Origin: a virus
Taxonomy: Duplodnaviria > Caudoviricetes
IMG/VR virus record: IMGVR_UViG_3300038406_000110
Span: 1 to 48,979 of that record
Direction: 5' to 3' (one strand)
Length of the DNA: 48,979 nucleotides
Shown here in pieces: positions 2,850 to 38,531 of this stretch (position 1 is its first letter; the number at the start of each line of letters is the position of its first letter). The notes under the pieces were generated by a model. That model was not told the DNA's origin. It was given only the letters and a program-made list of their open reading frames with translations, and did not search any database. A program made the position numbers and the translations under genes.

Positions 2850-3715
2850 AGGTACTCGAACATAGGTTTAAGTACCGGGTAGGGGATCGGTTCCGGTTTG
2901 TGGTGTTCTCGGACCTGCATTTGGGGGCGAAGTTATCGGCGGTAAAGTTATTCAAGCGCAACCTGATCGACCGCTACAAGGGCGACAAGGACGCTTGGTT
3001 CATCGACCTCGGAGACGCCTGCGACATGATCGTATCTCAGGGGGGCGACAAGCGGCACCAGCCGGATATGCTGGACGAGAGTTACGCCACCTGTAAAGAC
3101 CCCATCGACCGTATGATCCGGGATTACTGCGAACTGGTGGACCCCATTAAGGACCGCATCATCTGCATGACGGATTCCAACCACCACCTGACGATTGAGC
3201 AGCGCACCGGCACGTCTCCCACGCGACGGATCGCCGAGAAGTTATGGGACAAAGAAGCGGACAAACGGGTGATGGGATACGCGGGGTTCCTGGTGACGCG
3301 GTTTTCAATGGCCGGGAATAACGGAACGGGTCGGGACAACCATACCCGGTCGCTGGTGTGGTCGCTGTGCCACGGGATCGGCACGGGCGGGAAGACCGAG
3401 GGTGGATTCAAGACCACCATCGGCAACGATGCCATCAACTACGATTGCGACGTGGCGTGTTACGGCCACAACCATCAACTGGACGGCTGGGACCGGATCG
3501 TTCTAGGCGTGGACCAGTACGCCAACAAGGTCATTTCGAAGAAGAAGGTACGGATTAATTCCGGCAGTTACCTGAAGGGTTTCTCCGACGATTGCAGCAC
3601 ATCGTACGTAGAGAAAAAGCGGATGAAGCCGAACGCTTTGGGCCACATGGAGTTCAACGTCCGGATTAACCGGGCGGGGTTGGAAACCTACTACGTAAAA
3701 CGGATGGTGTTGTAG
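2846..3715 (+). CDS. Calcineurin-like metallophosphoesterase (probable ATA start at 2846)
   Basis: Motifs SDLH, LGDxxD, SNHH, CHG and GHNH; frame is open upstream to ATA 2846 behind a GAGAGG RBS. Confidence 0.85.
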   Translation: MKVLEHRFKYRVGDRFRFVVFSDLHLGAKLSAVKLFKRNLIDRYKGDKDAWFIDLGDACDMIVSQGGDKRHQPDMLDESYATCKDPIDRMIRDYCELVDPIKDRIICMTDSNHHLTIEQRTGTSPTRRIAEKLWDKEADKRVMGYAGFLVTRFSMAGNNGTGRDNHTRSLVWSLCHGIGTGGKTEGGFKTTIGNDAINYDCDVACYGHNHQLDGWDRIVLGVDQYANKVISKKKVRINSGSYLKGFSDDCSTSYVEKKRMKPNALGHMEFNVRINRAGLETYYVKRMVL

Positions 3716-3725
3716 GGGGCATGAC

Positions 3726-4094
3726 ATGGCCGATGAGTGGAGCATAACGATCACGCCCGACCCCAAGTCGGAAGATTGCCGGATAGAGACGAGCGATGGG
3801 CAGTCTTTCGTCGTCAAGGGGTTGGCCCTCTTCGCGGACAATGAGGGCGAGGGGAATTTATTCAGCTTTTATTGGCGCGATCCGAAGGTGGCCGCCTGCG
3901 GCTTGGTGCGCTCCTGCGCGGAGTCCATCCGCCGTGAGGATCCGTTCGCCCTGAAGTTCTACCAGACCATGTTCTACCAGTTCGCCAAGATCACCGGGGC
4001 GCAGAACACGGTGCTTACGCCGGAGGACGCGCTGAAGATGTTCGAGGCGAAAGAGGTCTACGACGCAATGAAGACCCCCATGAAGTTCAACTAA
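3726..4094 (+). CDS. Hypothetical protein
   Basis: 122-aa ORF with AGGGGG RBS and operon-like spacing. Confidence 0.65.
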   Translation: MADEWSITITPDPKSEDCRIETSDGQSFVVKGLALFADNEGEGNLFSFYWRDPKVAACGLVRSCAESIRREDPFALKFYQTMFYQFAKITGAQNTVLTPEDALKMFEAKEVYDAMKTPMKFN

Positions 4095-4247
4095 ATGCAT
4101 TGGGTATGGGCGTTGCTGGCCCGCCTATGCCCGGAGCCGTCGTTGTACGAGTCGTGTTTGCTGATTGATCCGGAAGAGGCACTGTGGGTTTTCCTGGGCC
4201 TTGCGATGGTGGGCCTGTTCGTGGCGTTGTTCCTCCGGAGGCCCTGA
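4095..4247 (+). CDS. Small membrane protein, 50 aa (not in the ORF track)
   Basis: ATG directly after the upstream TAA; TM segment 'LWVFLGLAMVGLFVALFL'; TGATG coupling to the next gene. Confidence 0.55.
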   Translation: MHWVWALLARLCPEPSLYESCLLIDPEEALWVFLGLAMVGLFVALFLRRP

Positions 4248-4456
4248 TGCAGATCCAGATGGTCGCTTACCGCGCAGCCCATATAACCTGCGACACCCCG
4301 TGGCGATGCGTACTGTGCGACAAACTGGCCCCCATTGCCGATGAAGTGGTCCGCCTTCACATGGCGGGGGAACACGGTCTGGAAGCGGAACTGCTGCGGC
4401 AGGAGGGCGATGCGCTGTTCCTGTATCCGATTAGCGAGCCTACGAGGTTAAATTAA
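4247..4456 (+). CDS. Small protein with a C2H2-like zinc finger
   Basis: W-R-C-x2-C-x13-H-x4-H (CVLCDK...RLHMAGEH); GGAGG RBS. Confidence 0.55.
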   Translation: MQIQMVAYRAAHITCDTPWRCVLCDKLAPIADEVVRLHMAGEHGLEAELLRQEGDALFLYPISEPTRLN

Positions 4457-5349
4457 TGCCTGTTCCCCGTTATTCGGAATACGACGCATACTTCGCAAAG
4501 ACCATCGCTGATGCGATTGAAGATCAGCGGAAGGCGAAACGTCCCCGCGATGGGTTCAACGGCTCTCCGGTGCAGGTCATGGGCATCAGTCCGAATCCCC
4601 CAGAACCGGGTAGGAACCTTCTGAATCCGCACCTGCCGGGTACCAGAGAGTTCACCGCTCGCGTTGACGCTTGGCAACCGCCGAACCCGCTTACTACGAA
4701 GCCAAGCGAGAATGATTTACTGATGGGCGCAGCGGTTGGCTTGACGTCACCCATTGCCAAAATAACTCCCTGGCAATTACTAAAAACAGGGAAAGAGGCA
4801 ACATTTTACGGATTCAGGGGCGAGGGTGGCCGTTCTCGTTCTTTGTTATCGCAAAAGTGGTCGAACCGGATGGGCCGCGACACCCTGTTGGGGGAGGGGG
4901 TGTACATTGCCCCCACCAAGACCATAGCGGCCAACTACGGGGAACCGATAAGCCACCGAGTCACCCTGAAAAACCCTTATGTTATCGAATCTGCAACGGG
5001 GACGGACGTATGGAAAAACCTAAATGTGGGAGAAATTAAGGCTGCGGGGCACGACGGGATAGTTATTAAGTCTGGCAGGGGTGAAGGTGGCGAGGCGATG
5101 GCGCAGGCCATTGTATTTCCAGAGCATTCAGGACAAGCGGTGAAGGCGAAACCGCAACCGGGTGAGATGGTCGTTGGCGTCAAGGTTAAATCCGTCAAGG
5201 AAATTAAATACGGAGGAGAAACATACCCCCCTGGACTAGAGGGGAAGTTGGCAGGATTCTCCCCGTGGGGCCATCCCTATATAAAAACAGCGGATGGAAA
5301 GAAGATTGCCGCACTAAACCCAGACGACATTGAGACTATAATTAAATGA
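4456..5349 (+). CDS. Putative ADP-ribosyltransferase-fold protein (ART-PolyVal-like)
   Basis: Motif series FRG...GEGVYIA...AANYG...LKNPY...GHDGIVI...QAIVF. Confidence 0.55.
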   Translation: MPVPRYSEYDAYFAKTIADAIEDQRKAKRPRDGFNGSPVQVMGISPNPPEPGRNLLNPHLPGTREFTARVDAWQPPNPLTTKPSENDLLMGAAVGLTSPIAKITPWQLLKTGKEATFYGFRGEGGRSRSLLSQKWSNRMGRDTLLGEGVYIAPTKTIAANYGEPISHRVTLKNPYVIESATGTDVWKNLNVGEIKAAGHDGIVIKSGRGEGGEAMAQAIVFPEHSGQAVKAKPQPGEMVVGVKVKSVKEIKYGGETYPPGLEGKLAGFSPWGHPYIKTADGKKIAALNPDDIETIIK

Positions 5350-7197: not shown

Positions 7198-7210
7198 GTG
7201 GGTGCGATCT

Positions 7211-9961
7211 ATGCGTAGACTGCTCATTGCGATAACCATTCTCCTCCTCTCCTCGCAGGCGTGGGCGGCGACGTATTGGGTACGAACGGATGGCGCTGAT
7301 GACAACTGTACTGGTCTTTCCGATGCCGCTTATCCCGGAACCGGCGTTGCACAAGCATGTGCGAAGAAAACCATTAAGGTCGGCATTGATCTATTTGCTT
7401 CGGCTGGCAACACCTTATATATTCGTTCCGGCACCTATGCTGAAACCGTTGCCTCTGCTGTGGATAGGGCGGGCAGCGACGGCAGTTACAACAAGGTAAT
7501 AGGAGGGATCGGAGGAGAAACAATATTAAACGGTACGGCCATTGCTGCTACTAACATGGCGATCACGGCAGACTACAACTGGATTGAGGGGATCACATTC
7601 ACAGGAACGGACGGCACATCCGCCAGAATAACCATAGATGTTTCTACTACTCCCGCCCATACCGTAATAACGGGGAACAAATTTAAAGATATATCGGTTG
7701 GAATACGATACAGGGCTGGCGGGGGAAGCATATATAACAACGTATTTGAAGGCACGAAGGAAACAACTGAAGCCGTAGATGCGATATGGTTGTACCCTAA
7801 TGCCGGGACTGCCGTAATATCCTACAATATCTTTCGTCCCTCTGAGAATTATTACATACGCCCGATCTATGCAGATTCAACACTTGGCGGAAGTATCCTG
7901 AATAATGTATTTACGGGGATGCAAAGATCCGGGGTAATACTTGGAGCCGCACAAGTATTAACTGTAAGCAACAATATATTTATGGCTTCGGGCCAAGTTG
8001 GTTCAGCGGATAGTTGGCCCATTGCGAATTATGGAACAGCCGGGAACGGGTCTACCCTCGTAGGCGGGAGCAATATGTACCTGCCGAATGGCCTTAATGG
8101 TCTGGTTATTGTTGAGTCATCCATCACAGACAATACAACGAGCAATCTGTATGATTCCCCAAGGTTTATCCATCCCCCAAGGGAATCATATACATTTATG
8201 ACGATTGATGATGCGGCGGCGCTTAATGATTCACTTTACCTAGCGCAGACGTACTACAACCCTAGCGGCCTACGGTTAATAAACGCCATCCAATATTGGG
8301 CTGTTGAGAATGGAGATGTATCCCACGATAACGCAGTTGCGTTAATAAACGCCGGGAACGATATAGCCAGTCACGGATATTCCCACACGCAGTTGAATAG
8401 TTTGGTTGCACTGACGATTGACGGCCCGACGGCAAACTCCAAGATCACGATAACCACCACGACAACCGACCCCGACAGCGACAACTGGACGGGGACCCTT
8501 GAGGTTCTAGAGGGAGCGACATCACAGGATAATGTAAATCTCGTTGGTACTTATGGAAACATCGCCGCACTAATCACCTACCTTAACGATAGAGACTACG
8601 GGGATGGGGCGTGGTCATGTACGGCTAAGACCGGGATCACTCAACCGAGAGACGATGCAAAAAGCGTTGGACTTGATCCACAGTCGGCGACGGACGTTTC
8701 CTCTGCCACAGACATCAGTTTCAATCAAACGAATTTCTATGCCATTGAGGTCACGGAAGCGGCAAGTAAACTCCAATCGTGGGTTCGCACAGGAGCCACC
8801 GGCAGAGCCGCAACATATACGGTCGAGTTTTTCATCGCAGGTGGGAACCTGCTAGACAACAATGTTAGGGATGTGGTTGCATCGGCTGGATTAAGGGGGG
8901 CCAGAAGCGATAGTTATGTATCTAACGCAGCCCCCAACTCAGCCAATCTATCGGTATTCTATCCATTCAGCGCGGAGTTTTGGGATGTTACAAATATCAG
9001 GCTTAACGGAGCGGGATATAAAGGATCTTCCAATGTATCCTTCTCGTCTGCCGCAAAGACGATCACAGTAGTAGGTGCAACATTAATCACAACCAACGGC
9101 CTTGCCGTTGGGGATGTCCTCACCGTAGTAAATACCACATCAAACGATAAGGAAGTAACGATAAGCGACATAGAGGAGGCGGCGGGAGACACCACAATAA
9201 CCGTAACAGAAGATCTCACCGATGAGAGCAATTCTTCCGCTGTTCTTACTTGCGAAGTAAAGTTCAAGCGTAATGTCAAGGCGTTCATGGCAGGGCAGGA
9301 AGCTGGCGGGAACTTCAGGGAGTTGATGAATCATTCACTATCATCCCTAATTGGGTTAGTGGAGATTGAGCACCAATGGTTCGCAGAGGCAGCAAGCACG
9401 GGAACCAACACCTTCCGGCATAGCATTAACGATGTACTGGACACTATATGGGATGGCACGGGCGAGGACGGAAACGCATGGACTGAGGGAGTAGGAAGCA
9501 AGGAAGAACCAGACCATACGTTGCGGTTGGATCATGTATATGTAGATATGTCCGACTACCGCCTCCGAATCTCCTCCCCCGCTATCAACGCAGGCGTTGA
9601 TGTATCGCTGACTACGGACTATGCGGGGAACACCGTTCCTACCGGCAGTGCGCCCGAGATCGGGTCGTATGAGTATGTCGTTACCTCGTCGAACTATGTA
9701 AACAGCGACATGGGTGTATTCTTTGAGAAGACGGCCACCGAATCACTATGGGATGCACAGAACCGATGGTTTAGTGCCAAGGGGTTCACAGAGGGCGGCA
9801 TAAACCAGCGATGGGCGGAATACCTGCTTAGTTTGGGGTACACACAGAACTTCCCTGAATCGCAACGGTTGTACTTCGAGGCATATACCGGAGTAAGCGG
9901 ATACGAGGCGGCGACAAAGGAGTTTTATAAGAAGGCAATCGAAGATGGATACCTGAATTAG
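7211..9961 (+). CDS. Right-handed beta-helix protein with an inserted NodB-type polysaccharide deacetylase domain and an N-terminal signal peptide
   Basis: MRRLLIAITILLLSSQAWA|ATYWV; xNNxF beta-helix repeats; TIDD and DIASHGYSH deacetylase motifs; 'DYRLRISSPAINAG...PEIGSYEY' terminal motif. Confidence 0.7.
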   Translation: MRRLLIAITILLLSSQAWAATYWVRTDGADDNCTGLSDAAYPGTGVAQACAKKTIKVGIDLFASAGNTLYIRSGTYAETVASAVDRAGSDGSYNKVIGGIGGETILNGTAIAATNMAITADYNWIEGITFTGTDGTSARITIDVSTTPAHTVITGNKFKDISVGIRYRAGGGSIYNNVFEGTKETTEAVDAIWLYPNAGTAVISYNIFRPSENYYIRPIYADSTLGGSILNNVFTGMQRSGVILGAAQVLTVSNNIFMASGQVGSADSWPIANYGTAGNGSTLVGGSNMYLPNGLNGLVIVESSITDNTTSNLYDSPRFIHPPRESYTFMTIDDAAALNDSLYLAQTYYNPSGLRLINAIQYWAVENGDVSHDNAVALINAGNDIASHGYSHTQLNSLVALTIDGPTANSKITITTTTTDPDSDNWTGTLEVLEGATSQDNVNLVGTYGNIAALITYLNDRDYGDGAWSCTAKTGITQPRDDAKSVGLDPQSATDVSSATDISFNQTNFYAIEVTEAASKLQSWVRTGATGRAATYTVEFFIAGGNLLDNNVRDVVASAGLRGARSDSYVSNAAPNSANLSVFYPFSAEFWDVTNIRLNGAGYKGSSNVSFSSAAKTITVVGATLITTNGLAVGDVLTVVNTTSNDKEVTISDIEEAAGDTTITVTEDLTDESNSSAVLTCEVKFKRNVKAFMAGQEAGGNFRELMNHSLSSLIGLVEIEHQWFAEAASTGTNTFRHSINDVLDTIWDGTGEDGNAWTEGVGSKEEPDHTLRLDHVYVDMSDYRLRISSPAINAGVDVSLTTDYAGNTVPTGSAPEIGSYEYVVTSSNYVNSDMGVFFEKTATESLWDAQNRWFSAKGFTEGGINQRWAEYLLSLGYTQNFPESQRLYFEAYTGVSGYEAATKEFYKKAIEDGYLN

Positions 9962-10195: not shown

Positions 10196-12160
10196 ATGTT
10201 AATGAAGGACAAGGATAAACTTGCGCGGACTCTAAGCGACGAGGAACTGGCCCGCCTGACGGAAGGGGATATATCGTCCGCACGTTCTCATTCGGATACG
10301 ATGAGCAACTGGCGTCAGGAGTTGCTAAACGAGTATCGCGGGATGCCCTACGGGAACGAGCAGAACGGTCGGTCCAAGGTAGTCGCTTCCGACATGGCGG
10401 ACGCCGTTGAATGGATCATGCCTAGCCTCATGCGGATCTTCGCCGGTACGCAGTCGGCGGTGACGATCACCGGCGTCGGGCCTGAAGACGAGCAGAAGGC
10501 GCGGGCGGTATCCGGGCTTATCTATTACCAGATGCAGAAGAAGAATGCGTACTTCGAGATGGTCTATACATGGTTCAAGAACGCCCTAAGGTTCAAAACA
10601 TCCGTTACAAAGGCTACGTGGAAGTACGACTACAATTTGCAGGATACGAGTTACGAGAACGTGACGCTTGAAGAGTTCCAGACCATACAGAACGACCCGT
10701 TTCTGGAGATCATCGAGGCCGTTCCGGTAACGGAAAACACCCCGGACGAGGGTTGGATCATCCCGCCGCTGTTTGAATCCATCAAACTGCGGTCGAAAGA
10801 CGTGCTGTTCGACGGCCCGCTGGTCGAAAACGTCAAGCCGGAGACGTTTTACATCGACCCGGAAGCCACCAGCGTGGACGATGCCCTGTATTGCGGCCAA
10901 ATCCTGTCGCTTACGGCGTCGGAACTGAGGCTTCGTGCCAAATCCAGCAGGTTCAAGTCCGCGAGAGTCGAAGAAGCCATCGAAAAGGGTCCGGGCGCGC
11001 ACGAACTGGATGTATCCCAGGAGGAAATGTACAGACTTAGCGTATCCGACCTGGAACAGAAGAAGAATAACTTCGATGGAGATGATCCCCGCCAGAAATT
11101 CGAGGTGTTCGAGCATTACTGCAAGCTGGACGTGAACGGAGATGACATCGCCGAGGATTGGATCGTCTACAAATGCAACGGGATCATCCTCGAAGACCAT
11201 GAAAACGAGTACGGACGGTTCCCGTTTTTCACGCTATCGCCCATCATCGAGCCGCATTCGTTCTACGGCGTGTCCATCGCCGAACTGATGAGCGATATAC
11301 AGCGGATCAAGAGTTCCCTGCTCCGCCTGATGCTCGACAACATGGCCTTCATGGTCAATGGCCGGTACGCCGTCCGCGAAGGCATGGTGAAAGTGCAGGA
11401 TTTGATCCACAACAACGTACCCGGCGGCGTTGTGCGGATGTCGGCGGAGAACGCCGTAACTCCCCTTGCCACTCCCCAGCTTCCCCAGTCGGTATTCAAC
11501 CTATTGGAGTTCATCGAGTCCGCGAAAGAGAACCGTACTGGCGTTACCAAGTACAACCAGGGGCTTGATTCCGATACGCTAAATAAGACCGCCACTGGCA
11601 TCAAGACCATCTACAATGCCTCCCTACAGCGCATCGAACTGATCGCCCGTATCTTCGCCGAGACGGGCTTTATGAAACTCGTCCGGGCGTTGATCGACTA
11701 CAACCGCCGGTTTATGACCCGCCCGCTGATGGTGAGGCTCGGGAACGAATCGTTCCCGGTGTATCCCGAGGACGTGAACGGCGAGTTCGATTTGGACGTG
11801 TCGGTTGGCGTTGGGAACATCGATCAGGCGCAGCGTGCGGCGTCCCTTGCGATGGGGTTGCAGATGACGATGCAACTGTTCGGCCCAGCGGCGGTGCCGC
11901 AGGCGTCCGCCATCATGCGCGAGTGGTGGGCGGCCAGCGGGTTCAAGAACAGCGAGGCGTTCGTTCCCAACCCACAACAGACGCAGCAATCACAGATGAT
12001 GCAAATGCAGCAATTACAGCAGGGGGGTGGGGATGGATCAGGAGCAGGAATGGCTGAAGGAAGTGCAATCGGGAATGGAAGCGAAGTCCCTTCTGGACAG
12101 CCCGCTGCTCCAGCGAGTTTTGAGGGATTTGCGGGAGCAAACAATTTCAACGTGGCGTAG
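10196..12160 (+). CDS. Portal protein (P22/SU10-like podoviral type)
   Basis: 'SKVVASDMADAVEWIMPSLMRIF', 'FYIDP', 'HSFYGVS', 'TATG...ELIARIFAETG'; Q-rich C-terminus; gene position. Confidence 0.9.
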   Translation: MLMKDKDKLARTLSDEELARLTEGDISSARSHSDTMSNWRQELLNEYRGMPYGNEQNGRSKVVASDMADAVEWIMPSLMRIFAGTQSAVTITGVGPEDEQKARAVSGLIYYQMQKKNAYFEMVYTWFKNALRFKTSVTKATWKYDYNLQDTSYENVTLEEFQTIQNDPFLEIIEAVPVTENTPDEGWIIPPLFESIKLRSKDVLFDGPLVENVKPETFYIDPEATSVDDALYCGQILSLTASELRLRAKSSRFKSARVEEAIEKGPGAHELDVSQEEMYRLSVSDLEQKKNNFDGDDPRQKFEVFEHYCKLDVNGDDIAEDWIVYKCNGIILEDHENEYGRFPFFTLSPIIEPHSFYGVSIAELMSDIQRIKSSLLRLMLDNMAFMVNGRYAVREGMVKVQDLIHNNVPGGVVRMSAENAVTPLATPQLPQSVFNLLEFIESAKENRTGVTKYNQGLDSDTLNKTATGIKTIYNASLQRIELIARIFAETGFMKLVRALIDYNRRFMTRPLMVRLGNESFPVYPEDVNGEFDLDVSVGVGNIDQAQRAASLAMGLQMTMQLFGPAAVPQASAIMREWWAASGFKNSEAFVPNPQQTQQSQMMQMQQLQQGGGDGSGAGMAEGSAIGNGSEVPSGQPAAPASFEGFAGANNFNVA

Positions 12161-12332
12161 CACGAAGATGAGTCAGACGGCGGAGCGTGAGAACGCCTAT
12201 CACCTGATGCTGGCGACGGATTGCGTAGAGAACGCGCTTAACGCGGCAACTGATAGCGGCGAAGTTGCGAAAATCAGTTTGGCAACACTAAAAGAGAAGA
12301 GGCAATACAGACGCAAAACGAGGGAGGGGTAA
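12033..12332 (+). CDS. Portal-adjacent small helical protein
   Basis: 'AKSLLDSPLL...W...ERENAY' pattern typical of the gene following podoviral portals. Confidence 0.7.
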   Translation: MDQEQEWLKEVQSGMEAKSLLDSPLLQRVLRDLREQTISTWRSTKMSQTAERENAYHLMLATDCVENALNAATDSGEVAKISLATLKEKRQYRRKTREG

Positions 12333-12341: not shown

Positions 12342-12371
12342 TTGACACGAACCCGTCGGCGGGTGTATGCT
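12342..12371 (+). promoter_or_regulatory. Sigma70-type promoter for the RAMP gene/array cassette
   Basis: TTGACA (12342-47), 18-nt spacer, TATGCT (12366-71); A/T-rich upstream. Confidence 0.7.
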
Positions 12372-12517
12372 ATGTTCATTCTTGGTCGGGAAGGGGCCAA
12401 TGGATCTTCCGAACATAGACGGAACCGCCGGTGGGAAACGGAACGCAAGTTCCGGGTGTCCCTTTGTCTGCGTTGCCTTCCCCAGCGCAGGACGGCGGTA
12501 GCCATCGGGGGCACGAA

Positions 12518-13186
12518 ATGGCAAGACAGGTAGCAGAAAGTGTTGGGGAACAAGTAGAAACCGGCAAGGTTTTTAGCATCAAGTATCACGAAATTGATGT
12601 GGTGATTGAAACAACGACTCGGATGTATGGGGGAATCCCGCAATCAGAAGATCTTCTCCGGGCATGGATAGAGGCGAAGGGTCCAATGCCCGAGGAATCA
12701 TTGGATGAGAAGATCGAGGCGATGACTCCGGGGGAAATCGACGAGAAGGTTGAGTTGTCCTCAACTGGATTCCGTGCTGATGCAGACGGGATCTACATGC
12801 GGGATTTTATGGTCAAACAGATGATGAAGGAGTCAGCGACCGCGGTTGGGATGCTGGCGAAGAAGATCGGCACGAAAACGAACCTCACCATCGGGCTTGT
12901 CGTGAAGCCGGAGCGGATTCACGTAGGCAAGGAGGGTCCGGACGGGTATGAGGAGTTCCAAGGCCGGGTGAAGACGATGCAGGGACCGCGCTCCATCATG
13001 TCGCGCAAGGCGTACTTCGAGCCTGGATTGCAGATCACGTTCGGTATCAAGATGTTGGCCGGTGGGAAATTGACGCCAAATGATGTCCGCGCATTGTTGG
13101 ATCATGCGGGAGAGTTCGTCGGTTTCGGGTCTGCCCGATCAAGGGAGGCGGGCAAATTCAAGGTGGTGAAGTACGAGGCGAGATAG
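12518..13186 (+). CDS. Stand-alone RAMP-superfamily (Cas7/Csm3-like) RNA-binding protein
   Basis: N-terminal strand 'EIDVVIETTTRMYGG', helix 'DFMVKQMMKES', 'YFEPGLQITFGI', C-terminal G-rich loop 'AGEFVGFGSARSREAGKFKV'; no other cas genes nearby. Confidence 0.75.
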   Translation: MARQVAESVGEQVETGKVFSIKYHEIDVVIETTTRMYGGIPQSEDLLRAWIEAKGPMPEESLDEKIEAMTPGEIDEKVELSSTGFRADADGIYMRDFMVKQMMKESATAVGMLAKKIGTKTNLTIGLVVKPERIHVGKEGPDGYEEFQGRVKTMQGPRSIMSRKAYFEPGLQITFGIKMLAGGKLTPNDVRALLDHAGEFVGFGSARSREAGKFKVVKYEAR

Positions 13187-13187
13187 G

Positions 13188-13920
13188 GCGGCACGATGAG
13201 ACGACACATTGCTACCCGAGGCGCGACGCAGTGGCTACACGACACGTGACCCGGCCTGACATTGACGTGACGCGACAAGGCGGCTACACAGTACGGGACA
13301 CGATGATATGTTGCAATGCGGCAAAACCTGACAACGCGTCACTATGCGGCGTAACAGCACGAGATAGGACGTGATCTTGCGGCAAGACTTTATGAGACAA
13401 GATGATACTTTGCGGCTGGACGAGACGCGGCGTGGCTACACCTTATGACGCAACGCGGCTTTACTTTGTTTGACGGGGCGTGGCCGGACATGACCATGCG
13501 GCATAATGGGACACGGCAAGACAATGCTTTGCTTTTCTTTGCGGGACTTTGCGGGGCATGACCGTGCGGCCATACTTGACTGCTTGAAACGGGACCGGAT
13601 GACGCGGCAGGACCTTACTAGGCACGACTAGACGAGATGACGCGGCTACACGTCACAAGGCTCGACGAGGCATTGAGGCTATATTGCACATCGTAGTACA
13701 AGACGGGGCGGCTACACGCGACGTGACGGCGACAAGACACAGCCTTACCCGGCGGCATCATTATACAGAACTCTATTATATCCAGCGGCATTATTGGACG
13801 GAACCCGACTGGACGCGACTATGCGGCAGAACCTTACGAGGCACTACTGAATGACGCGGCATGACACTACGGAACTGGACAGATAACGACGCGGCATAAT
13901 TAAACAGGCTGGTATTCGGT
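13188..13920 (+). ncRNA. Non-coding pentamer-periodic array of 18 units, GGC-(NN-NRY)5-13; putative guide-RNA array
   Basis: Manual parse gives about 129 pentamers, nearly all ending in RY, with units delimited by NGC|GGC; no ORF of 60 aa or more in any frame; starts right after the RAMP stop. Confidence 0.8.
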
Positions 13921-13923
13921 AGC

Positions 13924-13954
13924 AAAAGGGCTGTCCTTCGGGACGGCCCTTTTT
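13924..13954 (+). terminator. Intrinsic terminator closing the RAMP/array cassette
   Basis: AAAAGGGCTGTCC-TTCG-GGACGGCCCTTTTT. Confidence 0.9.
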
Positions 13955-13982
13955 ATTTCAACCAAAAAAAGGAGAGCAACAA

Positions 13983-15149
13983 ATGGGTGACGACAGACAG
14001 GGAGCGGGCACGCCTCAAGCCCCCGCCAACCCGGACGAGACTTTCGGAATGAACGACGAGGATTTCTACGTGGACGAAGAAACCGGCGCGGTGTTCATCG
14101 GAGACACAAACGTAGAAGGGCGCGGAAGGCGACCGCAGGCGGAACCTTCCCTGCTGAAACAGCAACCTCCACCGCCGGACGAGGGTATTGGGTATGACGA
14201 TGATATCAACATGGATGAAGAAGGCAACGTAGACATCGGGGGCATCCGAGTACAGGAAAACAGGATCGACAACACCGATCCCGTGGAAACGGAGTTCCAG
14301 CGAGGAAAGTTGACCGCCGACGAGAAAGACGAGCAATTAGCGGAGAAGGAAGAGAAATACAGGGCGCAGGAGGCTGCAAAGACCCCGCCGCCCCCGCCTC
14401 CGCAGGAAGAATACAGGCTGAAGATCCTCGACGAAGAGCACGTAATCAAGGACAAAAACGAACTGCTTAACCTCGCACAGAAGGGATTGCGGGCCGACCA
14501 GAAGTTTCAGGAACTGGCCGAGATGAGGAAGGAGATCGAACCCTTCTATCAGGTATCCCTCCGCATGAAGGACGATCCGGCGTTTCTGGAGCATGTGAAA
14601 CAGTTCGGGCAGCCTAGTTATCAGGTGGATGGCCCGGAACCCATGACGGTTGCGCCCGATCAATTCCAGAAACTCGTCGATGAACGTGTCACCAATCAGA
14701 TGATGGCGCAGAAAATCTATTGGTCGCATGACCAGAAATTCAAGGAGTTCAACGGATATCCGAAATCGGATGAAGTACGGCAGAAGCTTCTAAGCGACTC
14801 TCTGCATTGGGACAAGTTCACAAGGGACTGGGTAGACAAGAACCCAGTAGCCTACGCGGACAAGTTCCATCAGACAGCGCAGAAGATCATCCGCGAGAGG
14901 ATGCTTGACCCGGAACCCGCGCGACCGATCCCGCCAAGAGTGATCGAGAAGCAGAAAGTAATTCTCGAACAACTGCGGGCAAAAGAAGTCGCCAAGGAGA
15001 GGGCCAAGGTGGAATCCGCCAGATCGAACGCCGATGTACAGGCTCAGGATGGCCGACTGGCATTGAACCGGGCCAGAAAACGTGCCACTGAAACCGGATC
15101 GGTAGCGGATTGGGCGGATGTAATCGAGAAGATGGGGTTCGCCGACTAA
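13983..15149 (+). CDS. Capsid scaffolding protein
   Basis: Acidic, Pro-rich N-terminus and coiled-coil 'ELLNLAQKG..ADQKFQELAE'; C-terminus 'ATETGSVADWA'; directly before the MCP. Confidence 0.8.
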   Translation: MGDDRQGAGTPQAPANPDETFGMNDEDFYVDEETGAVFIGDTNVEGRGRRPQAEPSLLKQQPPPPDEGIGYDDDINMDEEGNVDIGGIRVQENRIDNTDPVETEFQRGKLTADEKDEQLAEKEEKYRAQEAAKTPPPPPPQEEYRLKILDEEHVIKDKNELLNLAQKGLRADQKFQELAEMRKEIEPFYQVSLRMKDDPAFLEHVKQFGQPSYQVDGPEPMTVAPDQFQKLVDERVTNQMMAQKIYWSHDQKFKEFNGYPKSDEVRQKLLSDSLHWDKFTRDWVDKNPVAYADKFHQTAQKIIRERMLDPEPARPIPPRVIEKQKVILEQLRAKEVAKERAKVESARSNADVQAQDGRLALNRARKRATETGSVADWADVIEKMGFAD

Positions 15150-15180: not shown

Positions 15181-16140
15181 ATGACAGTATTAACGAACGT
15201 CTATGCGACCTACGGCCAGGGTGCTTCCGGCGTCGTAGGCGGCGGGAAACTTAAGGAATCCCTCGACAATGTGATCGCCAATATATCACCAAGCGAGACG
15301 ATTTTCCTTAATCGTTTCAAGAAGGGCAAGGCACATGCCCGGTACGAAGAGTGGATGTTGGACACTCTCGCTCAGTATTCCGACAACGCACAGCTTGAAG
15401 GCGATGCGGTTACGGGAGATGCGGTAACTGCTGCTGACCGCACGGGGAACTACACGCAGATTGTCAGGAAAGCCTTCACCATCTCTGACACAAACGAAGC
15501 TGTCGATAAGGCAGGAAAAAAATCAGAGGTGGCATATCAGACCGCCAAGCAGCTGAAAGAATTGGCGAAAGACATAGAATTTGCGTTGTCCTATGGTACG
15601 GGTGGTTCCGGCAACATCGGAGCCAAAAGGCGCATGAAGGGCCTCCTCGGCACCAGCGGCGGGTCTGCTCAGCAGGGATGGATCACCACCAACCAGCTGT
15701 GCGCTTCTGGGTCGGCGGTTTCTGAAGGGGATTTCAACACGCTTCTTCAGACGATCTGGGCTGCTGGTGGGAAACCTCAGTCGGCGTTCGTTTCCGGGGC
15801 GAACAAGCGGGTTATCTCCGCTTATAGCGGCAACGCTACCCGGTACATTGATACAGTTTCCAAGGAAGCGGTCAACGTGGTTGACATATACCGCTCCGAC
15901 TTCGGCCCGATCCGCATCTTCCTTCAGAGGTTGTATGAAACCTCCGTTACTGCGGCGACGGCGGCGGTCAGCGCGTTCCCGATCATACAGGAAGACCTGT
16001 GGGAGATCAGGACGCTTCGCCCGACCAAGATCGTGCCTCTCGCCAAGACGGGTGACGGTGAAACCCGGATGATCGTATGGGAGGGGACATTGGTCAGCCG
16101 TGCGGAGACTGGCAACGGTGTGGTGACGGGGACCACGTAA
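15181..16140 (+). CDS. Major capsid protein (SU10/DUF5309-like, HK97 fold)
   Basis: 'ESLDNVIANISPSET', 'NYTQIVRK', 'KELAKDIEFAL', 'YRSDFG', 'LAKTGD'. Confidence 0.9.
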   Translation: MTVLTNVYATYGQGASGVVGGGKLKESLDNVIANISPSETIFLNRFKKGKAHARYEEWMLDTLAQYSDNAQLEGDAVTGDAVTAADRTGNYTQIVRKAFTISDTNEAVDKAGKKSEVAYQTAKQLKELAKDIEFALSYGTGGSGNIGAKRRMKGLLGTSGGSAQQGWITTNQLCASGSAVSEGDFNTLLQTIWAAGGKPQSAFVSGANKRVISAYSGNATRYIDTVSKEAVNVVDIYRSDFGPIRIFLQRLYETSVTAATAAVSAFPIIQEDLWEIRTLRPTKIVPLAKTGDGETRMIVWEGTLVSRAETGNGVVTGTT

Positions 16141-16219: not shown

Positions 16220-16564
16220 ATGGGTTGGATTCGTGATGCAGAAGGCGTTTGGGTAGCCGACGACGGTCATCGCGTGAGCGATATAGCCGACATCGTAGGT
16301 ACCGATGGCGAGGTATACCACATCCAGAACGTCGGCAGGATAGCCGCTCATTGCGCCGAGATGCAGAAGTCTCCTGGATGGAGCAAGACCCGCACGATGA
16401 AGCGGTTAGCCAGTATCCCGCTGCTTGAGTTCCTGAAGCATCCCGAAATATCCGAATTGGATACAAACGAAAAAGTGGCGGCGTATGTAAGAAAGTATCT
16501 GCCTCAATACCGAACTGAAGAGGATTCCAGAGGCGTGGCGTCCGCAAACGTGGTGGTCAAATGA
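16220..16564 (+). CDS. Hypothetical protein following the MCP
   Basis: 'MKRLASIP' motif; GGGGG RBS; ATGA coupling to the next gene. Confidence 0.7.
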   Translation: MGWIRDAEGVWVADDGHRVSDIADIVGTDGEVYHIQNVGRIAAHCAEMQKSPGWSKTRTMKRLASIPLLEFLKHPEISELDTNEKVAAYVRKYLPQYRTEEDSRGVASANVVVK

Positions 16565-17109
16565 AGCTTAACTTGGGGTGCGGAGTTCATCGACTTCCCG
16601 GATTCACTAACATCGACGTTTCTGGTTACTGCGACCCGGACGTGATCGCAAACGTACTTGAACTTCCATACGAGAAAAACAGCGCAAGCATTATCTACGC
16701 AGGACACCTTATAGAGCACCTTGAACCAAGTGAATTATACGGTGCGATAAAGCATTGGTTCGACATCCTAAAGCCTGGGGGGAAACTATATCTTACATTC
16801 CCCGATTTCGAGAAGGTTTTCGAGATGTGGGACAACGGTTGGGCGAACTGGAAGGAAGTCAACGGAGTATTGTTCGGTCTCGACCGCCCGGAGGGTGCCG
16901 GGGTGTATGTGTATCACCGGCAGTTAGTGTCTATAAACACCATCAAACCGTTTCTGGAAAACATATTCGGCAGCTTCGAGGTTGAGGTTGACTGCGAATA
17001 CACGCCCGCCCGCGTGTATTGGCAATCCACCGTAACTGCGGTGAAGAAGGAACCTGAAACGGTCATATCGGAAGTGGAACCTCCTGCGGCGGAGGTGTCG
17101 GTTGCTTAA
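16561..17109 (+). CDS. Class I SAM-dependent methyltransferase
   Basis: LNLGCG motif I, 'HLIEHL', 'LKPGG'. Confidence 0.85.
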   Translation: MKLNLGCGVHRLPGFTNIDVSGYCDPDVIANVLELPYEKNSASIIYAGHLIEHLEPSELYGAIKHWFDILKPGGKLYLTFPDFEKVFEMWDNGWANWKEVNGVLFGLDRPEGAGVYVYHRQLVSINTIKPFLENIFGSFEVEVDCEYTPARVYWQSTVTAVKKEPETVISEVEPPAAEVSVA

Positions 17110-18220
17110 ATTACTGTCCATCACCCGCGATCCCGGAGCCTGTACACACATACGCCTACGGCAGATAGTAAATGAAATCGAAAAGAAAAACCTGGCAAAA
17201 GTATGGCAGTTCGATGTTAAGGACAATATACCGGAAGCGGAAAAGATATTCAACGATGGCGCGTATCACGCCGACATTATATGGTTCGGCAGGAACATTT
17301 CGGAAAATATAATCAATAGCGCTGAAGAATTACAGAAATTGGGCAAGAAAATTATATTAGATTTAGACGACAATGTATTCGATATATCTCCGTGGTCGGC
17401 ACATTACGAGACGTTCGGTACGGAAGAAGTGTCAATAGACGGGAAGGCGGTTTGGAAGGATAAGATAAATATCAACATACCTGCGAACAGGGCAAGACAA
17501 GAGCAGTACAAGAAATTCCTTTCCATTGCAAGCGCTGTATCGGTAACAACTCCCGTACTTATGGATCAATACAAGCCATACGCTAAAAAGATATTCGTAT
17601 TTCCAAACGCCATCGATATGAAGGCGTGGGATTGCAAGCAAACCCTTCAGCGAGATCCGAATAAAATACGTATTTTCTGGCAGGGAGGGGTTTCCCATTA
17701 CGAGGATTTTTGGGAGATCATAGAGGTCATCCCGGAGATCACCAAGAAATACCCTCAAGTCCAATGGGTGATGATGGGAGCTTCTTGGGAGCATTTCTGG
17801 AAGGATATACCGAAGGATCGTTACGAATACTTGGATTGGGTGCATATCGAGGGATACCCGTATCGGATGCAACTTGTAGGGGCAGACATAGGAATCTGTC
17901 CACTTAGGGATACAAGTTTCAACCGCTGCAAATCGTCCATCAAATACTACGAACATGCGGCGTTAGGAATACCGACAGTTGCAAGCAACATGTCTCCGTA
18001 TGCGGACGATATCGAAGACGGGAAAACGGGATACCTGGCGTCCTCTAAGGACGAATGGATAGAGAAGTTATCCCGGTTGATCGAAGATCCCGTGGAACGC
18101 AACCGGATTGGTGGGGAAGCCAAGCGATACGTGGAACGGGAAAGGTCCGTGGAGGTGGTCGCACCTCTCATCGCCAAGGCTATGGATGCTCACGTAAACG
18201 GAAAGGGGTTGACGACATAG
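17102..18220 (+). CDS. Glycosyltransferase (GT-B, GT4-like)
   Basis: 'DLDD', 'PNAID', 'DIGICPL..FNRCKSSIKYYE..ALGIPTVAS..PY', 'GKTGYL'. Confidence 0.85.
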   Translation: MLKLLSITRDPGACTHIRLRQIVNEIEKKNLAKVWQFDVKDNIPEAEKIFNDGAYHADIIWFGRNISENIINSAEELQKLGKKIILDLDDNVFDISPWSAHYETFGTEEVSIDGKAVWKDKININIPANRARQEQYKKFLSIASAVSVTTPVLMDQYKPYAKKIFVFPNAIDMKAWDCKQTLQRDPNKIRIFWQGGVSHYEDFWEIIEVIPEITKKYPQVQWVMMGASWEHFWKDIPKDRYEYLDWVHIEGYPYRMQLVGADIGICPLRDTSFNRCKSSIKYYEHAALGIPTVASNMSPYADDIEDGKTGYLASSKDEWIEKLSRLIEDPVERNRIGGEAKRYVERERSVEVVAPLIAKAMDAHVNGKGLTT

Positions 18221-19518
18221 CCTCCCAAGCCCGCATTACGTTCGTACAGGCAAGAAGGCCCACGGATGTGAATTGGTATCCAACCCTGTCGTATGGATAC
18301 CTGAAGGCGTACATGGCGCAGCGGATAGGCGACCAAGCGCAGATCCGAAGGGCTGTAAGTATAGACGACTTCCAGGATTGCGATGTTCTCGCCATATCAT
18401 CCACATCTCAGGATTACGGGGTGGCGCAGAAGATCGCCTTAGCGGCAAAGAAGGATAATCCAAAGGTCATCACCGTACTTGGCGGGCATCATGTCTCCTA
18501 CCTGCCGGAATCCATGTCGGAGCAATTCGACATAGGGGTTATCGGCGAGGGGGAGGAGACGTTTTCCGAACTCGTTCCGGCTTTATTGAACGGGTCCGAT
18601 ATCGGGCAGATACCGGGGTTGGCATTCCACCACGAAGGGCGAGTAATAGTTACCACGCCCAGGGGATACATCAATCCTATAAACACCATCCCGATGCCGT
18701 ACAGGGACTACTACGGAAGAGTCTATATGATGTCTTCCAGAGGGTGTCCGTACAATTGTTCTTTCTGCACGGCGAAAGTGTTTTGGGGTAAGACGCGGTT
18801 CTTCAGCGCACCTTATGTCGTTGCGGAAATTGAGCACCTTGTATTCCACATGGGAGCAAATCCACATATCGAAATTTACGACGATCTATTCGTCGCCGAC
18901 CGCAAACGGTTCGAGGAGATCATCTGCCTGCTTGAAAAGAAGGGGTATACGGATAAGGCGTCTTACAGTTTTACCGTTAGGGCGAACATGGTGGACGACG
19001 ACCTATGCCGTCAGATTAACAGGTTTAGTTCGGTGGGTGTGTGCTTCGGCGCGGAGTCGGGATCAGACCGTGTGCTGAAACTTATGAACAAAGGTTCAAC
19101 CGTTGCGATAAACCAACGTGCTTTAGACCTACTGCATAAGTACGACATCAAAACCGCCTGCTCGTTCATCGTTGGTTGGCCCACGGAGACGGAAGAGGAA
19201 GTACGCAACACTTACGAATTTATAAGTAGAAACACCGCAGAGGGCAAACACCCCCCGCAGGCGGTGGTCAACATCCTCATGCCTATGCCGGGTACGGGCG
19301 TATGGGAGCAAGCGGTAAAAACAGGCGTCATCCCGAAGCATGGATTCGATTGGGACCGCTTGGGGATCTTCGCCTCCTACCATCATTCAACCGCCTCATC
19401 GTTCGACGATTGGGTGTGTTCACGCCGCGAGAACAACAGCGTCTACATGAACGAGGCAACTGTACCGCAGGAGAGGTTGTATCAGATCATGGCTGAATAC
19501 GAACAGGCGAGGTTGTAA
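18217..19518 (+). CDS. Cobalamin-binding radical SAM enzyme (class B methyltransferase-like); probable ATA start
   Basis: B12-binding domain (LGGHH, GEGE), 'SRGCPYNCSFC' CxxxCxxC, 'GAESGS', 'FIVGWPTET'. Confidence 0.85.
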   Translation: MASQARITFVQARRPTDVNWYPTLSYGYLKAYMAQRIGDQAQIRRAVSIDDFQDCDVLAISSTSQDYGVAQKIALAAKKDNPKVITVLGGHHVSYLPESMSEQFDIGVIGEGEETFSELVPALLNGSDIGQIPGLAFHHEGRVIVTTPRGYINPINTIPMPYRDYYGRVYMMSSRGCPYNCSFCTAKVFWGKTRFFSAPYVVAEIEHLVFHMGANPHIEIYDDLFVADRKRFEEIICLLEKKGYTDKASYSFTVRANMVDDDLCRQINRFSSVGVCFGAESGSDRVLKLMNKGSTVAINQRALDLLHKYDIKTACSFIVGWPTETEEEVRNTYEFISRNTAEGKHPPQAVVNILMPMPGTGVWEQAVKTGVIPKHGFDWDRLGIFASYHHSTASSFDDWVCSRRENNSVYMNEATVPQERLYQIMAEYEQARL

Positions 19519-20163
19519 ATGAAGACTCTGGAGCAGATCCGGGCGAAGACAAGGTATTACATAGACGAAACGGACGATACCACCCCCACGACTTGGCAGA
19601 ACGCGGAACTAAACGAATACATCAACGACGCCCAGATATTCGTCCTGTCGGAGATGGTGAAGGTCAATCCCGATTACGGCTTAACCCGCGCAACGGCCTC
19701 TACGGTGGCGGCTACAAGCACCTACGTCATGCCTGCGGATCTGTTCGGCAACAAGTTCCGGGGAGCGTGGCGGTACTCCTCAACGACCGGAAACCGTGTT
19801 GAATTGCAGTACAAATCCAACGACACCATCATGGCTGGACAGCACCTTCAAGGACCGCCGATCTATTACACATTCATCGATCCTTCCCTGGTTCTGGCAC
19901 CGATTCCAGACGGCGTTTATACGCTGGAAATGTGGTACACGGCCCGCCCCACAACGCTGTCATCCGACAGCGATAACTGCTGGTTCAAGGATGAGGAGGT
20001 GGAGGCTCTTGCGGCATGGGCCGCGATAAAGGCGTTGAACCGCATCGATAGAGATCCAACGAAGGTAGCAAAGACCCTGGATGTACTGATGTCCCAGATC
20101 AAGGCGAACATAACGCCCGACGATAACCTGGTGATCGAGTACGCACCGCTGGACATGACGTAG
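19519..20163 (+). CDS. Head-tail adaptor (tail tubular A/gp4-like)
   Basis: 'TLEQIRAKTR', 'ELNEYINDA', 'GPPIYY', 'LAPIPD..YTL'. Confidence 0.75.
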   Translation: MKTLEQIRAKTRYYIDETDDTTPTTWQNAELNEYINDAQIFVLSEMVKVNPDYGLTRATASTVAATSTYVMPADLFGNKFRGAWRYSSTTGNRVELQYKSNDTIMAGQHLQGPPIYYTFIDPSLVLAPIPDGVYTLEMWYTARPTTLSSDSDNCWFKDEEVEALAAWAAIKALNRIDRDPTKVAKTLDVLMSQIKANITPDDNLVIEYAPLDMT

Positions 20164-20198
20164 GCAGTTAACCCAAACCCCAACAAGGAGAGAAAGAA

Positions 20199-20720
20199 AT
20201 GGCACGAAAAGTCGGCAAGAGAAGCAAGACCCCTAGCGATGCACCCGGATTCTACGGCTTCTGCCGGGTGAACATCGTCAACCCGGACGGTTCTCTCGCG
20301 GGGGATTCGGGATGGCACAAGAACCGCATCACCAACGTAGGCTTGCAGGACTATCTCCTGAAGACCTTCCTGCGGGTCGCAGGATCGGCCTCAGTCGCCT
20401 ACATGGCGGTCGGCAAGGGTACGGACACCCTCGCTACCAACGGGACGGCTATGACCAGCCAGTGCGCCGGATCGCACATGGTCACGGTGTCCTCGTCCTC
20501 TTCCAGTCGCGCTTCCTCGACGGACGGAGCGTTGGCCCGCCACCTTGCGACGTTCGCAAGCAACGGGTTCGCGGCGGCTACCACCATCGGTCAGGCCGGT
20601 CTGCATTCGGCGACGGATGGATCGATAATGTGTGCGGCGACGTTCGCTACAAGCGCGGTTGCCACCAACCAGGCCGTTAATTGTACCTACGATTTATCCT
20701 TCGTGAGCACTACCGTATAG
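20199..20720 (+). CDS. Putative virion structural protein
   Basis: 'NRITNVG', 'YMAVGKG', 'IGQAGL' pattern of tail-associated proteins; AAGGAG RBS. Confidence 0.6.
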   Translation: MARKVGKRSKTPSDAPGFYGFCRVNIVNPDGSLAGDSGWHKNRITNVGLQDYLLKTFLRVAGSASVAYMAVGKGTDTLATNGTAMTSQCAGSHMVTVSSSSSSRASSTDGALARHLATFASNGFAAATTIGQAGLHSATDGSIMCAATFATSAVATNQAVNCTYDLSFVSTTV

Positions 20721-20759
20721 TTAGCGGGTTTTAGAACAATACAATAAACAGGGGGTTTT

Positions 20760-21809
20760 GTGAAGGCCGAACAAACTGGAACGTTATTGGATGTCGGCTG
20801 TCGTGACCGTAAGGAAGATAATTGGACGGGAATAGATACCCGGAAACGGCCAGGGGTGGATATCGTTCACAACCTGGAAAAGTTCCCCTATCCAATTAAA
20901 ACTTCCTCCGTATTCACCATCAAGGCCGCGCATATAGCGGAGCATATCCCGCCGAACCTAATTCTCAAATGGTTCGACGAGATGTGGCGGATGCTCAAAC
21001 CTGGCGGGCAGATGGCGTTGGCGACTCCTTACGCCGGTTCGCAGGCGTATTGGAACGACCCGACGCATGTAACTGGTTTCACCGAAGTATCGTTCCAGAT
21101 GCTCGACCCGAATTACCCTCTCTATCATCAGTACGAGCCGAAGCCGTGGAAGGTGGAGCACTCTGTTTGGAAGCCGCAGGGGAATTTGGAGATCATCCTG
21201 CGGAAGATCGACACGGACTACTGCTTCCTACTGACGATGGAATCGCTCAAAAAGATGGCGATGCAGAAGGTATCGGAACTTCATTCCCTGTACGCCTTAT
21301 TGAAGGGCATGGACCTGTCTGTAGTCGTTGAGATTGGGAGCGCGCACGGCGGCGTGTTCTACGGGTTGTGTCAGGTGGCACGGTCGAACGCCACGCTTGT
21401 ATCCATCGATCTACCCGGTGGCAAGTTCGGCGGGGAAGCTGTGCCGATGGATGAATCGATCCTCCGGGCTTACGGGCGGAAGGGGCAGAACATCCATCTG
21501 ATCCGCAGGGATTCCCACCTTAAATCCACGCTGGACGAACTCAAGCAAGTCCTGAAAGGCAGGAAGATCGACTTCCTGCTGATCGATGGGGATCACACCT
21601 ACGAAGGAGCCAAGCAGGACTATATGACGTATTCGCCGTTGGTGCGAAAGGGAGGCGCGATAGCGCTCCACGATATCTGTACCCACCCGTTTGTCCCTGA
21701 ATGCAAGGTGGATAAGTTCTGGGGAGAAGTGAAGAAGGGCAAGAAGCACATCGAGATGATCGACCACGATATCCAGTCGTGGGGCGGCATCGGGGTGGTG
21801 CTGCCATGA
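20760..21809 (+). CDS. Tandem double SAM-dependent methyltransferase
   Basis: Domain 1 has LDVGC, HIAEH and LKPGG; domain 2 has VEIGS..GG, IDGDHTY and HDI (Methyltransf_24-like). Confidence 0.85.
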   Translation: MKAEQTGTLLDVGCRDRKEDNWTGIDTRKRPGVDIVHNLEKFPYPIKTSSVFTIKAAHIAEHIPPNLILKWFDEMWRMLKPGGQMALATPYAGSQAYWNDPTHVTGFTEVSFQMLDPNYPLYHQYEPKPWKVEHSVWKPQGNLEIILRKIDTDYCFLLTMESLKKMAMQKVSELHSLYALLKGMDLSVVVEIGSAHGGVFYGLCQVARSNATLVSIDLPGGKFGGEAVPMDESILRAYGRKGQNIHLIRRDSHLKSTLDELKQVLKGRKIDFLLIDGDHTYEGAKQDYMTYSPLVRKGGAIALHDICTHPFVPECKVDKFWGEVKKGKKHIEMIDHDIQSWGGIGVVLP

Positions 21810-22648
21810 ACAACAAACCATTCCCTCCGAAGTACGGGAAGATCGTCCGCTCCAACATCGCGCCGGGGAAGAGGGTATTCATCTCCATCCCCATGACGGG
21901 CTTGATCCGTTCCGAGTTCCTTATGGCCCGGTACGGGCAGAACATCCCGCCGAATTGGACGCATACGGAATACATCACGTGGTTGGATAACATCGCGCCG
22001 TTGGGATTCCTCGTAGCGGACGCCAGGAACGTATCCGTCATGGAGTTCCTGAAAGGCGGCTGGGAGTGGCTGTTCTTCATCGACCATGACGTTATCCTGC
22101 CTCCGCAGACGTTCCAGTTATGGAACGAGCGTATCCTCCGGGCGGATAACCCAATTTGGGGCGGGCTGTACTTCATCAAATCCGTTCCTTCCGAGCCGCT
22201 ACTGTACGCGGAAGTCGGCAACGGGTACATGACCGACTGGAAGATGGGCGACGAGGTGTGGGTGCGGTACATGGGGTTAGGCTGCAACGTCATCCACCGG
22301 TCCATTCTTGAGGAAATCTGGAAGGTTTCTCCCGAGTACATGGTCGGCGGGCAGAAGACGCGGAAGGTGTTCGAGACGCCGAACAAGGCGTACTTCGATC
22401 CTGAAACAAACATGTGGAACGTGACGGGCGGCACCGAGGATTTCTTCTTCTACAACCGGCTGATACAGGAAGGGTTGCTGGCGAAGGCCGGTTGGAAAAA
22501 GCATCAGAAGATGGATCGCCCCTACTTATGCGATACGCGGGTCTTTTGCCGCCACATTGATTGGAACGGCATTCAGTATCCAAGCCAAGGCGAAGAGATG
22601 CGGTTCATGCCGCCTCCGAAGAAAGGTAAAAAGAATGTCCGAGCCTGA
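21806..22648 (+). CDS. Glycosyltransferase (GT-A/GT2-like)
   Basis: 'ARN', DxD in 'WLFFIDHD', 'GLGCNVIHR', 'TEDFFF', 'CRH'. Confidence 0.75.
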   Translation: MNNKPFPPKYGKIVRSNIAPGKRVFISIPMTGLIRSEFLMARYGQNIPPNWTHTEYITWLDNIAPLGFLVADARNVSVMEFLKGGWEWLFFIDHDVILPPQTFQLWNERILRADNPIWGGLYFIKSVPSEPLLYAEVGNGYMTDWKMGDEVWVRYMGLGCNVIHRSILEEIWKVSPEYMVGGQKTRKVFETPNKAYFDPETNMWNVTGGTEDFFFYNRLIQEGLLAKAGWKKHQKMDRPYLCDTRVFCRHIDWNGIQYPSQGEEMRFMPPPKKGKKNVRA

Positions 22649-37865: not shown

Positions 37866-38531
37866 TCATCCTTTGATCATCTTACTGAATTTATTGTGGC
37901 TTCCTATTGATAAACCATAATGCCTACAAATAGCAGATACGTTCATCCCGGAGTTAAAAAGATCCCTAACCTCCAGCCTGTCGTATTTTGGCGGGCGAGA
38001 ATTATATTTATTGAAACCGCACAGGCTGTCTCTTCGGGGTATCTTGTATCTATCAAAAACCCGCTTAATACTGTTTCCGCTTTTAGATTTAAGTCCAAAA
38101 TGATCGCTAATCTCTCTAAAGGACATTCCATCTTCCCAGTACATTTTTTTAAGAATTTCTCTATCATATTTGCATCTATCTCTAAGTATATACTCAACAG
38201 TATCTTTAAGTTTTTCTTTCTTCTCCTTAGAAATAAACCCAACAAGGTTGTAGAATTTAACTACAGATTCACCCCTGTATATAAATATAAAGTACGACTG
38301 TTTCCAGTGGGGTTTACCCATCCTGCCCCTCTTATGAAATATATGGTGTATTCCAAGTCTATTAAGAAACTCACTGCATTTATTGAGCATATCAAGATCC
38401 GTGTTTACTACGGAAAGATGTTGGGATCTATGTTTCCCGTTTTTTGCAAATGGGGTAAGAATTGTTCCCTCACCATCAAAGAATCCAGAAAGCCAACCGC
38501 ATATGAATTCTTCGCCATGGTCCATTTTCAT
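37866..38531 (-). mobile_element. Free-standing LAGLIDADG homing endonuclease with C-terminal HTH domain(s)
   Basis: 'GWLSGFFDGEG' LAGLIDADG motif, 'VVNTDLDML', HTH 'GMSFREISDHFGL'; strongly AT-rich; GGAGG RBS. Confidence 0.85.

Follow-up and report, generated by a model that had tools for sequence, protein, structure and literature searches.

A RAMP gene and its pentamer array in a phage head module: a probable divergent VIPR system

What does a lone 222-aa gene do that is followed directly by patterned non-coding DNA in the middle of a phage head operon? The locus lies in a 49-kb virus record from IMG/VR, of which the whole stretch (48,979 nt) was analysed and is referred to as the window. 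A preliminary description read it as a RAMP gene with an RNA guide array. Our analysis indicates that the two together probably work as a divergent form of VIPR: the RNA units would lead the protein to DNA, where it would shut off genes, in all likelihood mostly genes of competing phages. Directly found were the fold, the array grammar, the coupling of gene and array among relatives and, in one of these, a perfect match under a one-base skip.

Organisation of the cassette

All elements of the cassette are on the plus strand. It is placed between a 101-aa ORF (12027-12332), which follows an SU10-type portal gene (10196-12160), and a likely scaffold gene (13983-15149; assigned by position, with no family match) in front of the SU10 major capsid protein gene (15181-16140). 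A putative sigma-70-like promoter (12342-12371; TTGACA, 18 nt, TATGCT) with 10 of 12 consensus matches begins 10 bp past the stop of the 101-aa ORF. Two promoter-like sites were detected in the scan, compared to 1.1 +/- 1.1 in shuffled sequences, and the promoter call is therefore carried by its position. It is followed by a 5' leader with a G-rich ribosome site (12378-12517), the Vipr-family RAMP gene (12518-13186), 18 complete array units (13190-13892), a decaying 19th unit that merges into the terminator (13893-13925) and an intrinsic terminator hairpin with T-run (13928-13958). Gene, array, terminator and, by position, the putative promoter were thus found where the preliminary description had placed them. 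The terminator is strong, as described: its hairpin proper (13928-13949, followed by the T-run) gave a folding z of -5.05 and was as stable in 0/200 shuffles, though a simple terminator scanner left it unlisted. The leader had been called structured, which its folding does not bear out (z -0.97 against shuffles), and it revealed no Rfam match near the gathering score. An upstream GTG start (251 aa) of the RAMP gene was ruled out by homologue alignment; close homologues begin near the same methionine as the 222-aa ORF.

A comparison of 38 window ORFs with PHROGs, a part of the ORFs in a record that may be incomplete, revealed no cas genes, in agreement with the earlier reading. The same holds for a repeat-spacer CRISPR array: no family of direct repeats of at least 20 nt had more than two copies, and the Rfam search returned no match at gathering score. 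No vap gene is present from promoter to terminator. The GC content gave no sign of recent transfer, no RNA datasets were listed as containing the stretch, and the single sequencing run that contains it, which may be its source, showed no variants. The record encodes an integrase, so the phage is likely temperate.

Among 12 loci with related head modules, seven are distinct (34-44% capsid identity). Their portal, scaffold and capsid genes are closely spaced, six have a small ORF that separates the portal gene from the scaffold gene, and the vipr gene is absent from all seven. As judged from these distant relatives, the cassette is therefore likely an insertion, in line with its earlier description as a moron in the head operon. 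The window contains other genes of note. A 919-aa beta-helix protein (7202-9961) is encoded by another insertion-like head-module gene between the terminase and portal genes, methyltransferase, glycosyltransferase and radical-SAM-like genes (16561-22648) are found among the virion genes, and an ORF with weak endonuclease family matches (37866-38531, minus strand) lies between tail and endolysin genes.

The RAMP protein and the grammar of its array

The 222-aa protein matched no Pfam, PHROG or PADLOC family; 7 of 126 relatives touched Cas6_C weakly. Homology searches returned 17 close homologues and 630 representatives at E values up to 0.001, and no close homologue in GTDB genomes. Structure models calculated from 18 and 126 sequences (pLDDT 75 and 88.4, respectively) display an RRM core, a thumb hairpin (about residues 143-167) and a glycine-rich loop (202-212). 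The model aligned with Csm3 (6ae2) at Z 12.8 (rmsd 2.7, 146 residues aligned) and with type VII Cas7 at Z 12.1-12.3, and a RAMP match in Foldseek had an E value of 1.6e-5. Modelling hence confirmed a Cas7/Csm3-like RAMP fold; the preliminary description had made its proposal stand or fall with this fold, and the comparison came out in its favour.

SUSP1 Vipr is missing from these fold lists, the Foldseek library ending in April 2026. A profile of the family (126 rows) matched SUSP1 Vipr (PDB 36pp) with an E value of 0.013 in the PDB over profile positions 79-209 (~130 positions) and with 8.4e-8 in a pairwise comparison. Csm4 G-loops outscored SUSP1 Vipr in the PDB search, yet over ~40 positions. 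The likeness is weak (hhalign 66% over 44 columns; long branch), and homology to the described Vipr proteins was judged against this one weakly matching member. According to the accessible text of 10.64898/2026.04.26.720927, residues D177, W178 and R179 in the G-loop of SUSP1 Vipr read G1, G2 and Y3 of the triplet. They align with S205, A206 and R207 of the window protein; R207, the sole one of the three reading residues that is retained, is kept in 123/126 relatives. Judged from this alignment, the loop would fit a scaffold in which the pyrimidine was retained but not GG.

The array (13187-13926) shows periodicity at 5 nt and at 28, 33 and 38 nt, with identity z scores of 6.3, 7.6 and 6.7 at lags of 5, 10 and 15 and of 9.9 at lag 33. 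It contains 18 copies of GCGGC, compared to 2.5 +/- 1.5 in dinucleotide shuffles, and 13 strict delimiter-flanked units, compared to a maximum of 1 across 2000 shuffles; such units were found nowhere else in the window. Both the pentamer pattern right after the stop codon and the GCGGC delimiters had been noticed earlier and hold up in these counts. Each unit (GGC-nn-(NRY-nn)x-NGY, 28-68 nt) starts with GGC, alternates two variable bases (nn) with an NRY triplet and closes with a triplet (mostly NGC) joined directly to the following GGC, with no nn between them. The resulting unit length of 5n+3 applies to 15 of the 18 units, most of which have 6-8 pentamers; those at 13233 and 13710 carry a 1-nt insertion and the one at 13858 a 2-nt irregularity. 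The array RNA is predicted to be unstructured (z +1.1) and has no structured 3' tail. The last codon and stop of the RAMP gene are in register with the first delimiter (13181-13192; in the relative L001 at 4621-4636).

Pooling 207 distinct clean units from 12 loci, with irregular units left out and a filter that favours NRY, gave an internal pentamer of N(G 45%)-A(85%)-C(82%)-n-n and a modal length of 7 pentamers. The nn positions carry 0.03 and 0.00 bits and triplet positions 2-3 carry 1.2-1.3 bits, the latter partly by construction of the NRY filter. The first triplet base carries 0.14 bits and depends weakly on its neighbours (MI 0.06 vs 0.028).

L001 and L002, whose homologues have 78-81% identity and lie in different gene surroundings, carry the same array directly after the stop codon, as do the more distant homologues L007-L009. 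The cultured Microcystis phage Mae-JY09 (L005, PP395641.1) encodes a homologue at 27% identity; 33-nt (5n+3) units that begin with GAC and are C-rich in their internal scaffold, which makes a third type of scaffold, lie just past its stop (3190-3570). The array is present at six of seven distinct loci found by protein search, and at the seventh the contig breaks off shortly past the stop codon. A DNA-only scan of IMG/VR for the grammar, with a 7-pentamer unit as motif, detected 13 loci on 10 contigs, six of them new, i.e. not used for motif design. The family gene was found on the same strand at 13/13 loci and on 10/10 contigs, whereas none of 20 single motif matches in GTDB genomes, taken as control, was accompanied by the gene. 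The check for 5-nt periodic arrays at homologues proposed in the preliminary description was thus positive for proteins and DNA alike. Across the relatives the array may be upstream or downstream of the gene, on both sides or a few kb off, and the ORF lists of nine related loci revealed no shared neighbour gene by eye.

Some arrays of relatives are longer or rearranged. L009 has ~38 very regular units with the delimiter TGC-GAC (3185-4620); 33 of 61 units in its GAC-start group have AA as final dinucleotide, which may therefore not be informative. Near-identical units occur in different order in the related phages L009, L016 and L020, and L013 shows a tandem unit duplication with 5' divergence; units thus behave as exchangeable cassettes.

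Target code and candidate targets

In the model that we propose, a single transcript would start from the cassette's own putative promoter. By analogy to SUSP1 VIPR, the protein would coat each unit with one subunit per pentamer and the NRY triplet buried, while nn would pair with DNA and leave out one target base in three, usually at the wobble position of a codon. DNA binding would, as for SUSP1, repress transcription without cutting; repression is the proposed outcome because there is no nuclease partner. The extra triplet (NGY directly followed by GGC) would break the 5-nt register, which suggests from the sequence that every unit acts as a guide of its own. It would be either excised or, on a shared transcript, coated into a filament of its own. 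Such guides are short, the main unexplained point of the model: units hold 10-16 informative bases, and a 6-pentamer guide is expected to have ~0.5 chance sites in a 4-Mb host.

Codes with skips of 0-3 bases were compared using 180 guides of at least six pentamers against 1.08 Mb of carrier records (13 records). The guide at 9954 of L011 (9 pentamers) matched the vipr gene of its own phage at 18/18 positions with a one-base skip; unit and site are at 9907-9954 and 9498-9524, the unit lying just upstream of vipr. The skipped bases are at codon position 3 and the site is in a conserved helix. The E value is 1.6e-5 in 1.08 Mb, or ~3e-3 corrected for 180 guides, and ~5000 order-shuffles of the unit reached 16/18 at best. 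The same helix in two other vipr genes matched the L011 unit at 16/18 and 15/18 positions. Nothing beyond this match exceeded shuffles among the 180 guides. Skip-0 and skip-2 codes gave no match below E 1e-3, and two skip-0 matches at ~4e-3 are as expected for 180 guides. Adding the units with 1-nt insertions (204 guides) revealed no new target, and the target of the L011 guide is not extended by the unit that precedes it. A codon-phase test that took in every guide was null (p 0.51), 14 pairs of related units showed an even substitution rate over the five positions, and a peptide-pattern search against 165 proteins stayed at shuffle level. The Mae-JY09 guides had no perfect self match. A unit of L009 (4384) matched degenerate arrays of related phages (L046 at 19000, L049 at 6212) at 13/14 positions, which is chance level. 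The significant target thus concerns one guide of a distant homologue, whose protein belongs to a subclade other than that of the window protein, and the code is extended to the window array from there.

Exact IMG/VR scans were run for four of the 18 window units (13190, 13414, 13233 and 13457). Unit 13190 gave 37 matches. Fifteen fall within a DUF2800 nuclease family, with Pfam checks on 6 of them, and two, wobble-skipped, within an SU10 capsid gene. Unit 13414 gave four. Unit 13233, with its insertion ignored, gave three, each lying in frame within a small ORF that follows a capsid gene at short distance. In one case the capsid gene is of SU10 type and related to that of the window, and the matched ORF beside it is not similar to the window's own; the capsid assignment in L128 was made by eye. 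Unit 13457 gave eight matches, none in window-like phages. No second guide converged on any matched locus in the four scans. The counts are compatible with chance and no target is therefore claimed for the window guides; the matches contain hints at rival podovirus head modules.

The same protein-RNA filament might instead target mRNA in the manner of Csm3/Cas7. The nearest folds are indeed backbone subunits of the RNA-targeting types III and VII, and the single firm target is oriented to pair with mRNA; being complementary to mRNA, the L011 guide fits either target. SUSP1 Vipr, with the same code, nevertheless binds dsDNA on either strand, and sense orientation is seen both in a further, weaker match of L011 to its vipr gene (unit 8247, 13/14) and in the suggestive matches of unit 13233. 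We regard mRNA targeting as unlikely and DNA silencing as the likely mode. Equally unlikely as the main role is regulation of the own phage or host, by autoregulation or in the lysis-lysogeny decision, rather than of rivals. It is favoured by the identity of the sole firm target as the system's own vipr gene, which makes negative autoregulation possible in L011, by the integrase of the window phage and by a 15/18 in-frame match of unit 13233. That match lies in a window HTH_17 (excisionase-like) ORF (233-448) and is not significant (E 0.03, uncorrected). Against it, the 49 kb of the window contain no significant match to any of its units, and a significant self match was found for 1/180 guides in the 13 carrier records to which this comparison is confined. 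We lean slightly towards rival phages as the main targets.

A different code, in which the first triplet base also pairs and three contiguous bases are read with two-base bulges in the guide, would cure the short guide length, and the low information and weak neighbour dependence of this base point in the same direction. In the L011 match, however, the first triplet base equals the skipped base in 3/10 cases, the chance level, so it likely does not pair, and among 41 exact matches of two window units its agreement was at best 5/9. We consider this reading quite improbable and the one-base-skip code well favoured. Several irregular units in the window might suggest that the array is no guide store at all and instead a repeat in decay, a set of DNA binding sites or a decoy aimed at CRISPR proteins of the host. 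This is highly improbable, given the 18/18 gapped match and the recurrence of the grammar in unrelated gene contexts, next to homologues with as little as 27% identity. We hold a VIPR-type guide system, with high confidence, to be the correct class.

Relation to VIPR and implications

Like VIPR (SUSP1 and P. fulva type II; 10.64898/2026.04.26.720920, 10.64898/2026.04.26.720927), the system has a stand-alone phage RAMP gene without cas genes, a pentamer array of fixed triplet and variable nn and, in a relative, a one-base-skip, wobble-aligned match. This resemblance, already pointed out in the preliminary description, agrees with the profile match to SUSP1 Vipr. In contrast to type II, the scaffold is NRY (mostly NAC) and not GGY, units are mostly shorter than the published vrRNAs with 9-16 repeats, and they follow each other head-to-tail, with a register break of 3 nt between them and without a structured tail. 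A vap gene, typical of VIPR though not universal, is missing, and the protein is distantly related. Class 1 CRISPR backbones (Cas7/Csm3 of types III and VII) share RAMP fold, glycine-rich loop and thumb; they differ in having a repeat-spacer array and partner cas genes, and in contiguous pairing with every sixth base flipped. The system is very likely a variant of the described VIPR, and neither canonical type II nor a new kind of system.

The discovery paper (10.64898/2026.04.26.720920) describes the seed X1U2U4 and 670 proteins, and found no self-contig matches for the guides of P. fulva and of types III and V. Its accessible parts list NNNGG, YNNNG and NNNNG variants and 'staggered' vrRNA arrays (Figs S17-S18). 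Compared by description rather than by figure, our 5n+3 punctuation may be such a staggered array. The variant motifs listed there all keep G at triplet position 2, where our arrays have A in 74-85%. The available text of a competition paper (10.64898/2026.10.15.759431) reports orphan guides against the vipr genes of rivals. A language-model survey of October 2026 (10.64898/2026.10.21.760802) reports, in its accessible portion, GAC/NN and CAC/NN arrays beside Vipr-like folds in 21 clusters. With its dominant GAC triplet beside such a fold, the window system probably belongs to the same group; that portion models the arrays as plain pentamer runs and mentions no 5n+3 punctuation, target or code test. 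Literature searches returned no further paper on VIPR. The preliminary suggestion of a distinct variant with a constant NRY (mostly GAC) motif thus stands with respect to GGY, but such GAC/NN scaffolds are already in print. As far as the VIPR texts are accessible, they apparently describe neither a test of the code on an NAC scaffold nor a guide aimed at the vipr gene of its own system; the same applies to the 5n+3 punctuation, though their figures may show it.

We also consider, as a doubtful but possible extension, a one-gene, tail-less VIPR branch. Vipr itself would recognise the NGC-GRC punctuation, cut one transcript into 18-40 mini-guides (~35 nt) and keep the one-base-skip code on a NAC scaffold by means of a rewired G-loop, with some members throttling themselves by a guide against their own gene. 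If true, one RAMP would do the jobs of Cas6 and Cas7, and the branch would offer an orthogonal, multiplexed and very small DNA-targeting tool.

The findings raise the questions of how tail-less units are separated, how 12-16 informative bases provide specificity and how new units are written; the cultured phage Mae-JY09 shares the same architecture. For SUSP1 VIPR, the substitutions tested include GGY-to-GAY, and perturbing GGY reportedly abolished silencing. Our system would show that the gapped code of VIPR is independent of the GGY scaffold. Two G-loop residues may set the choice of scaffold, and the family offers testable orthogonal VIPR pairs and natural multiplex arrays.
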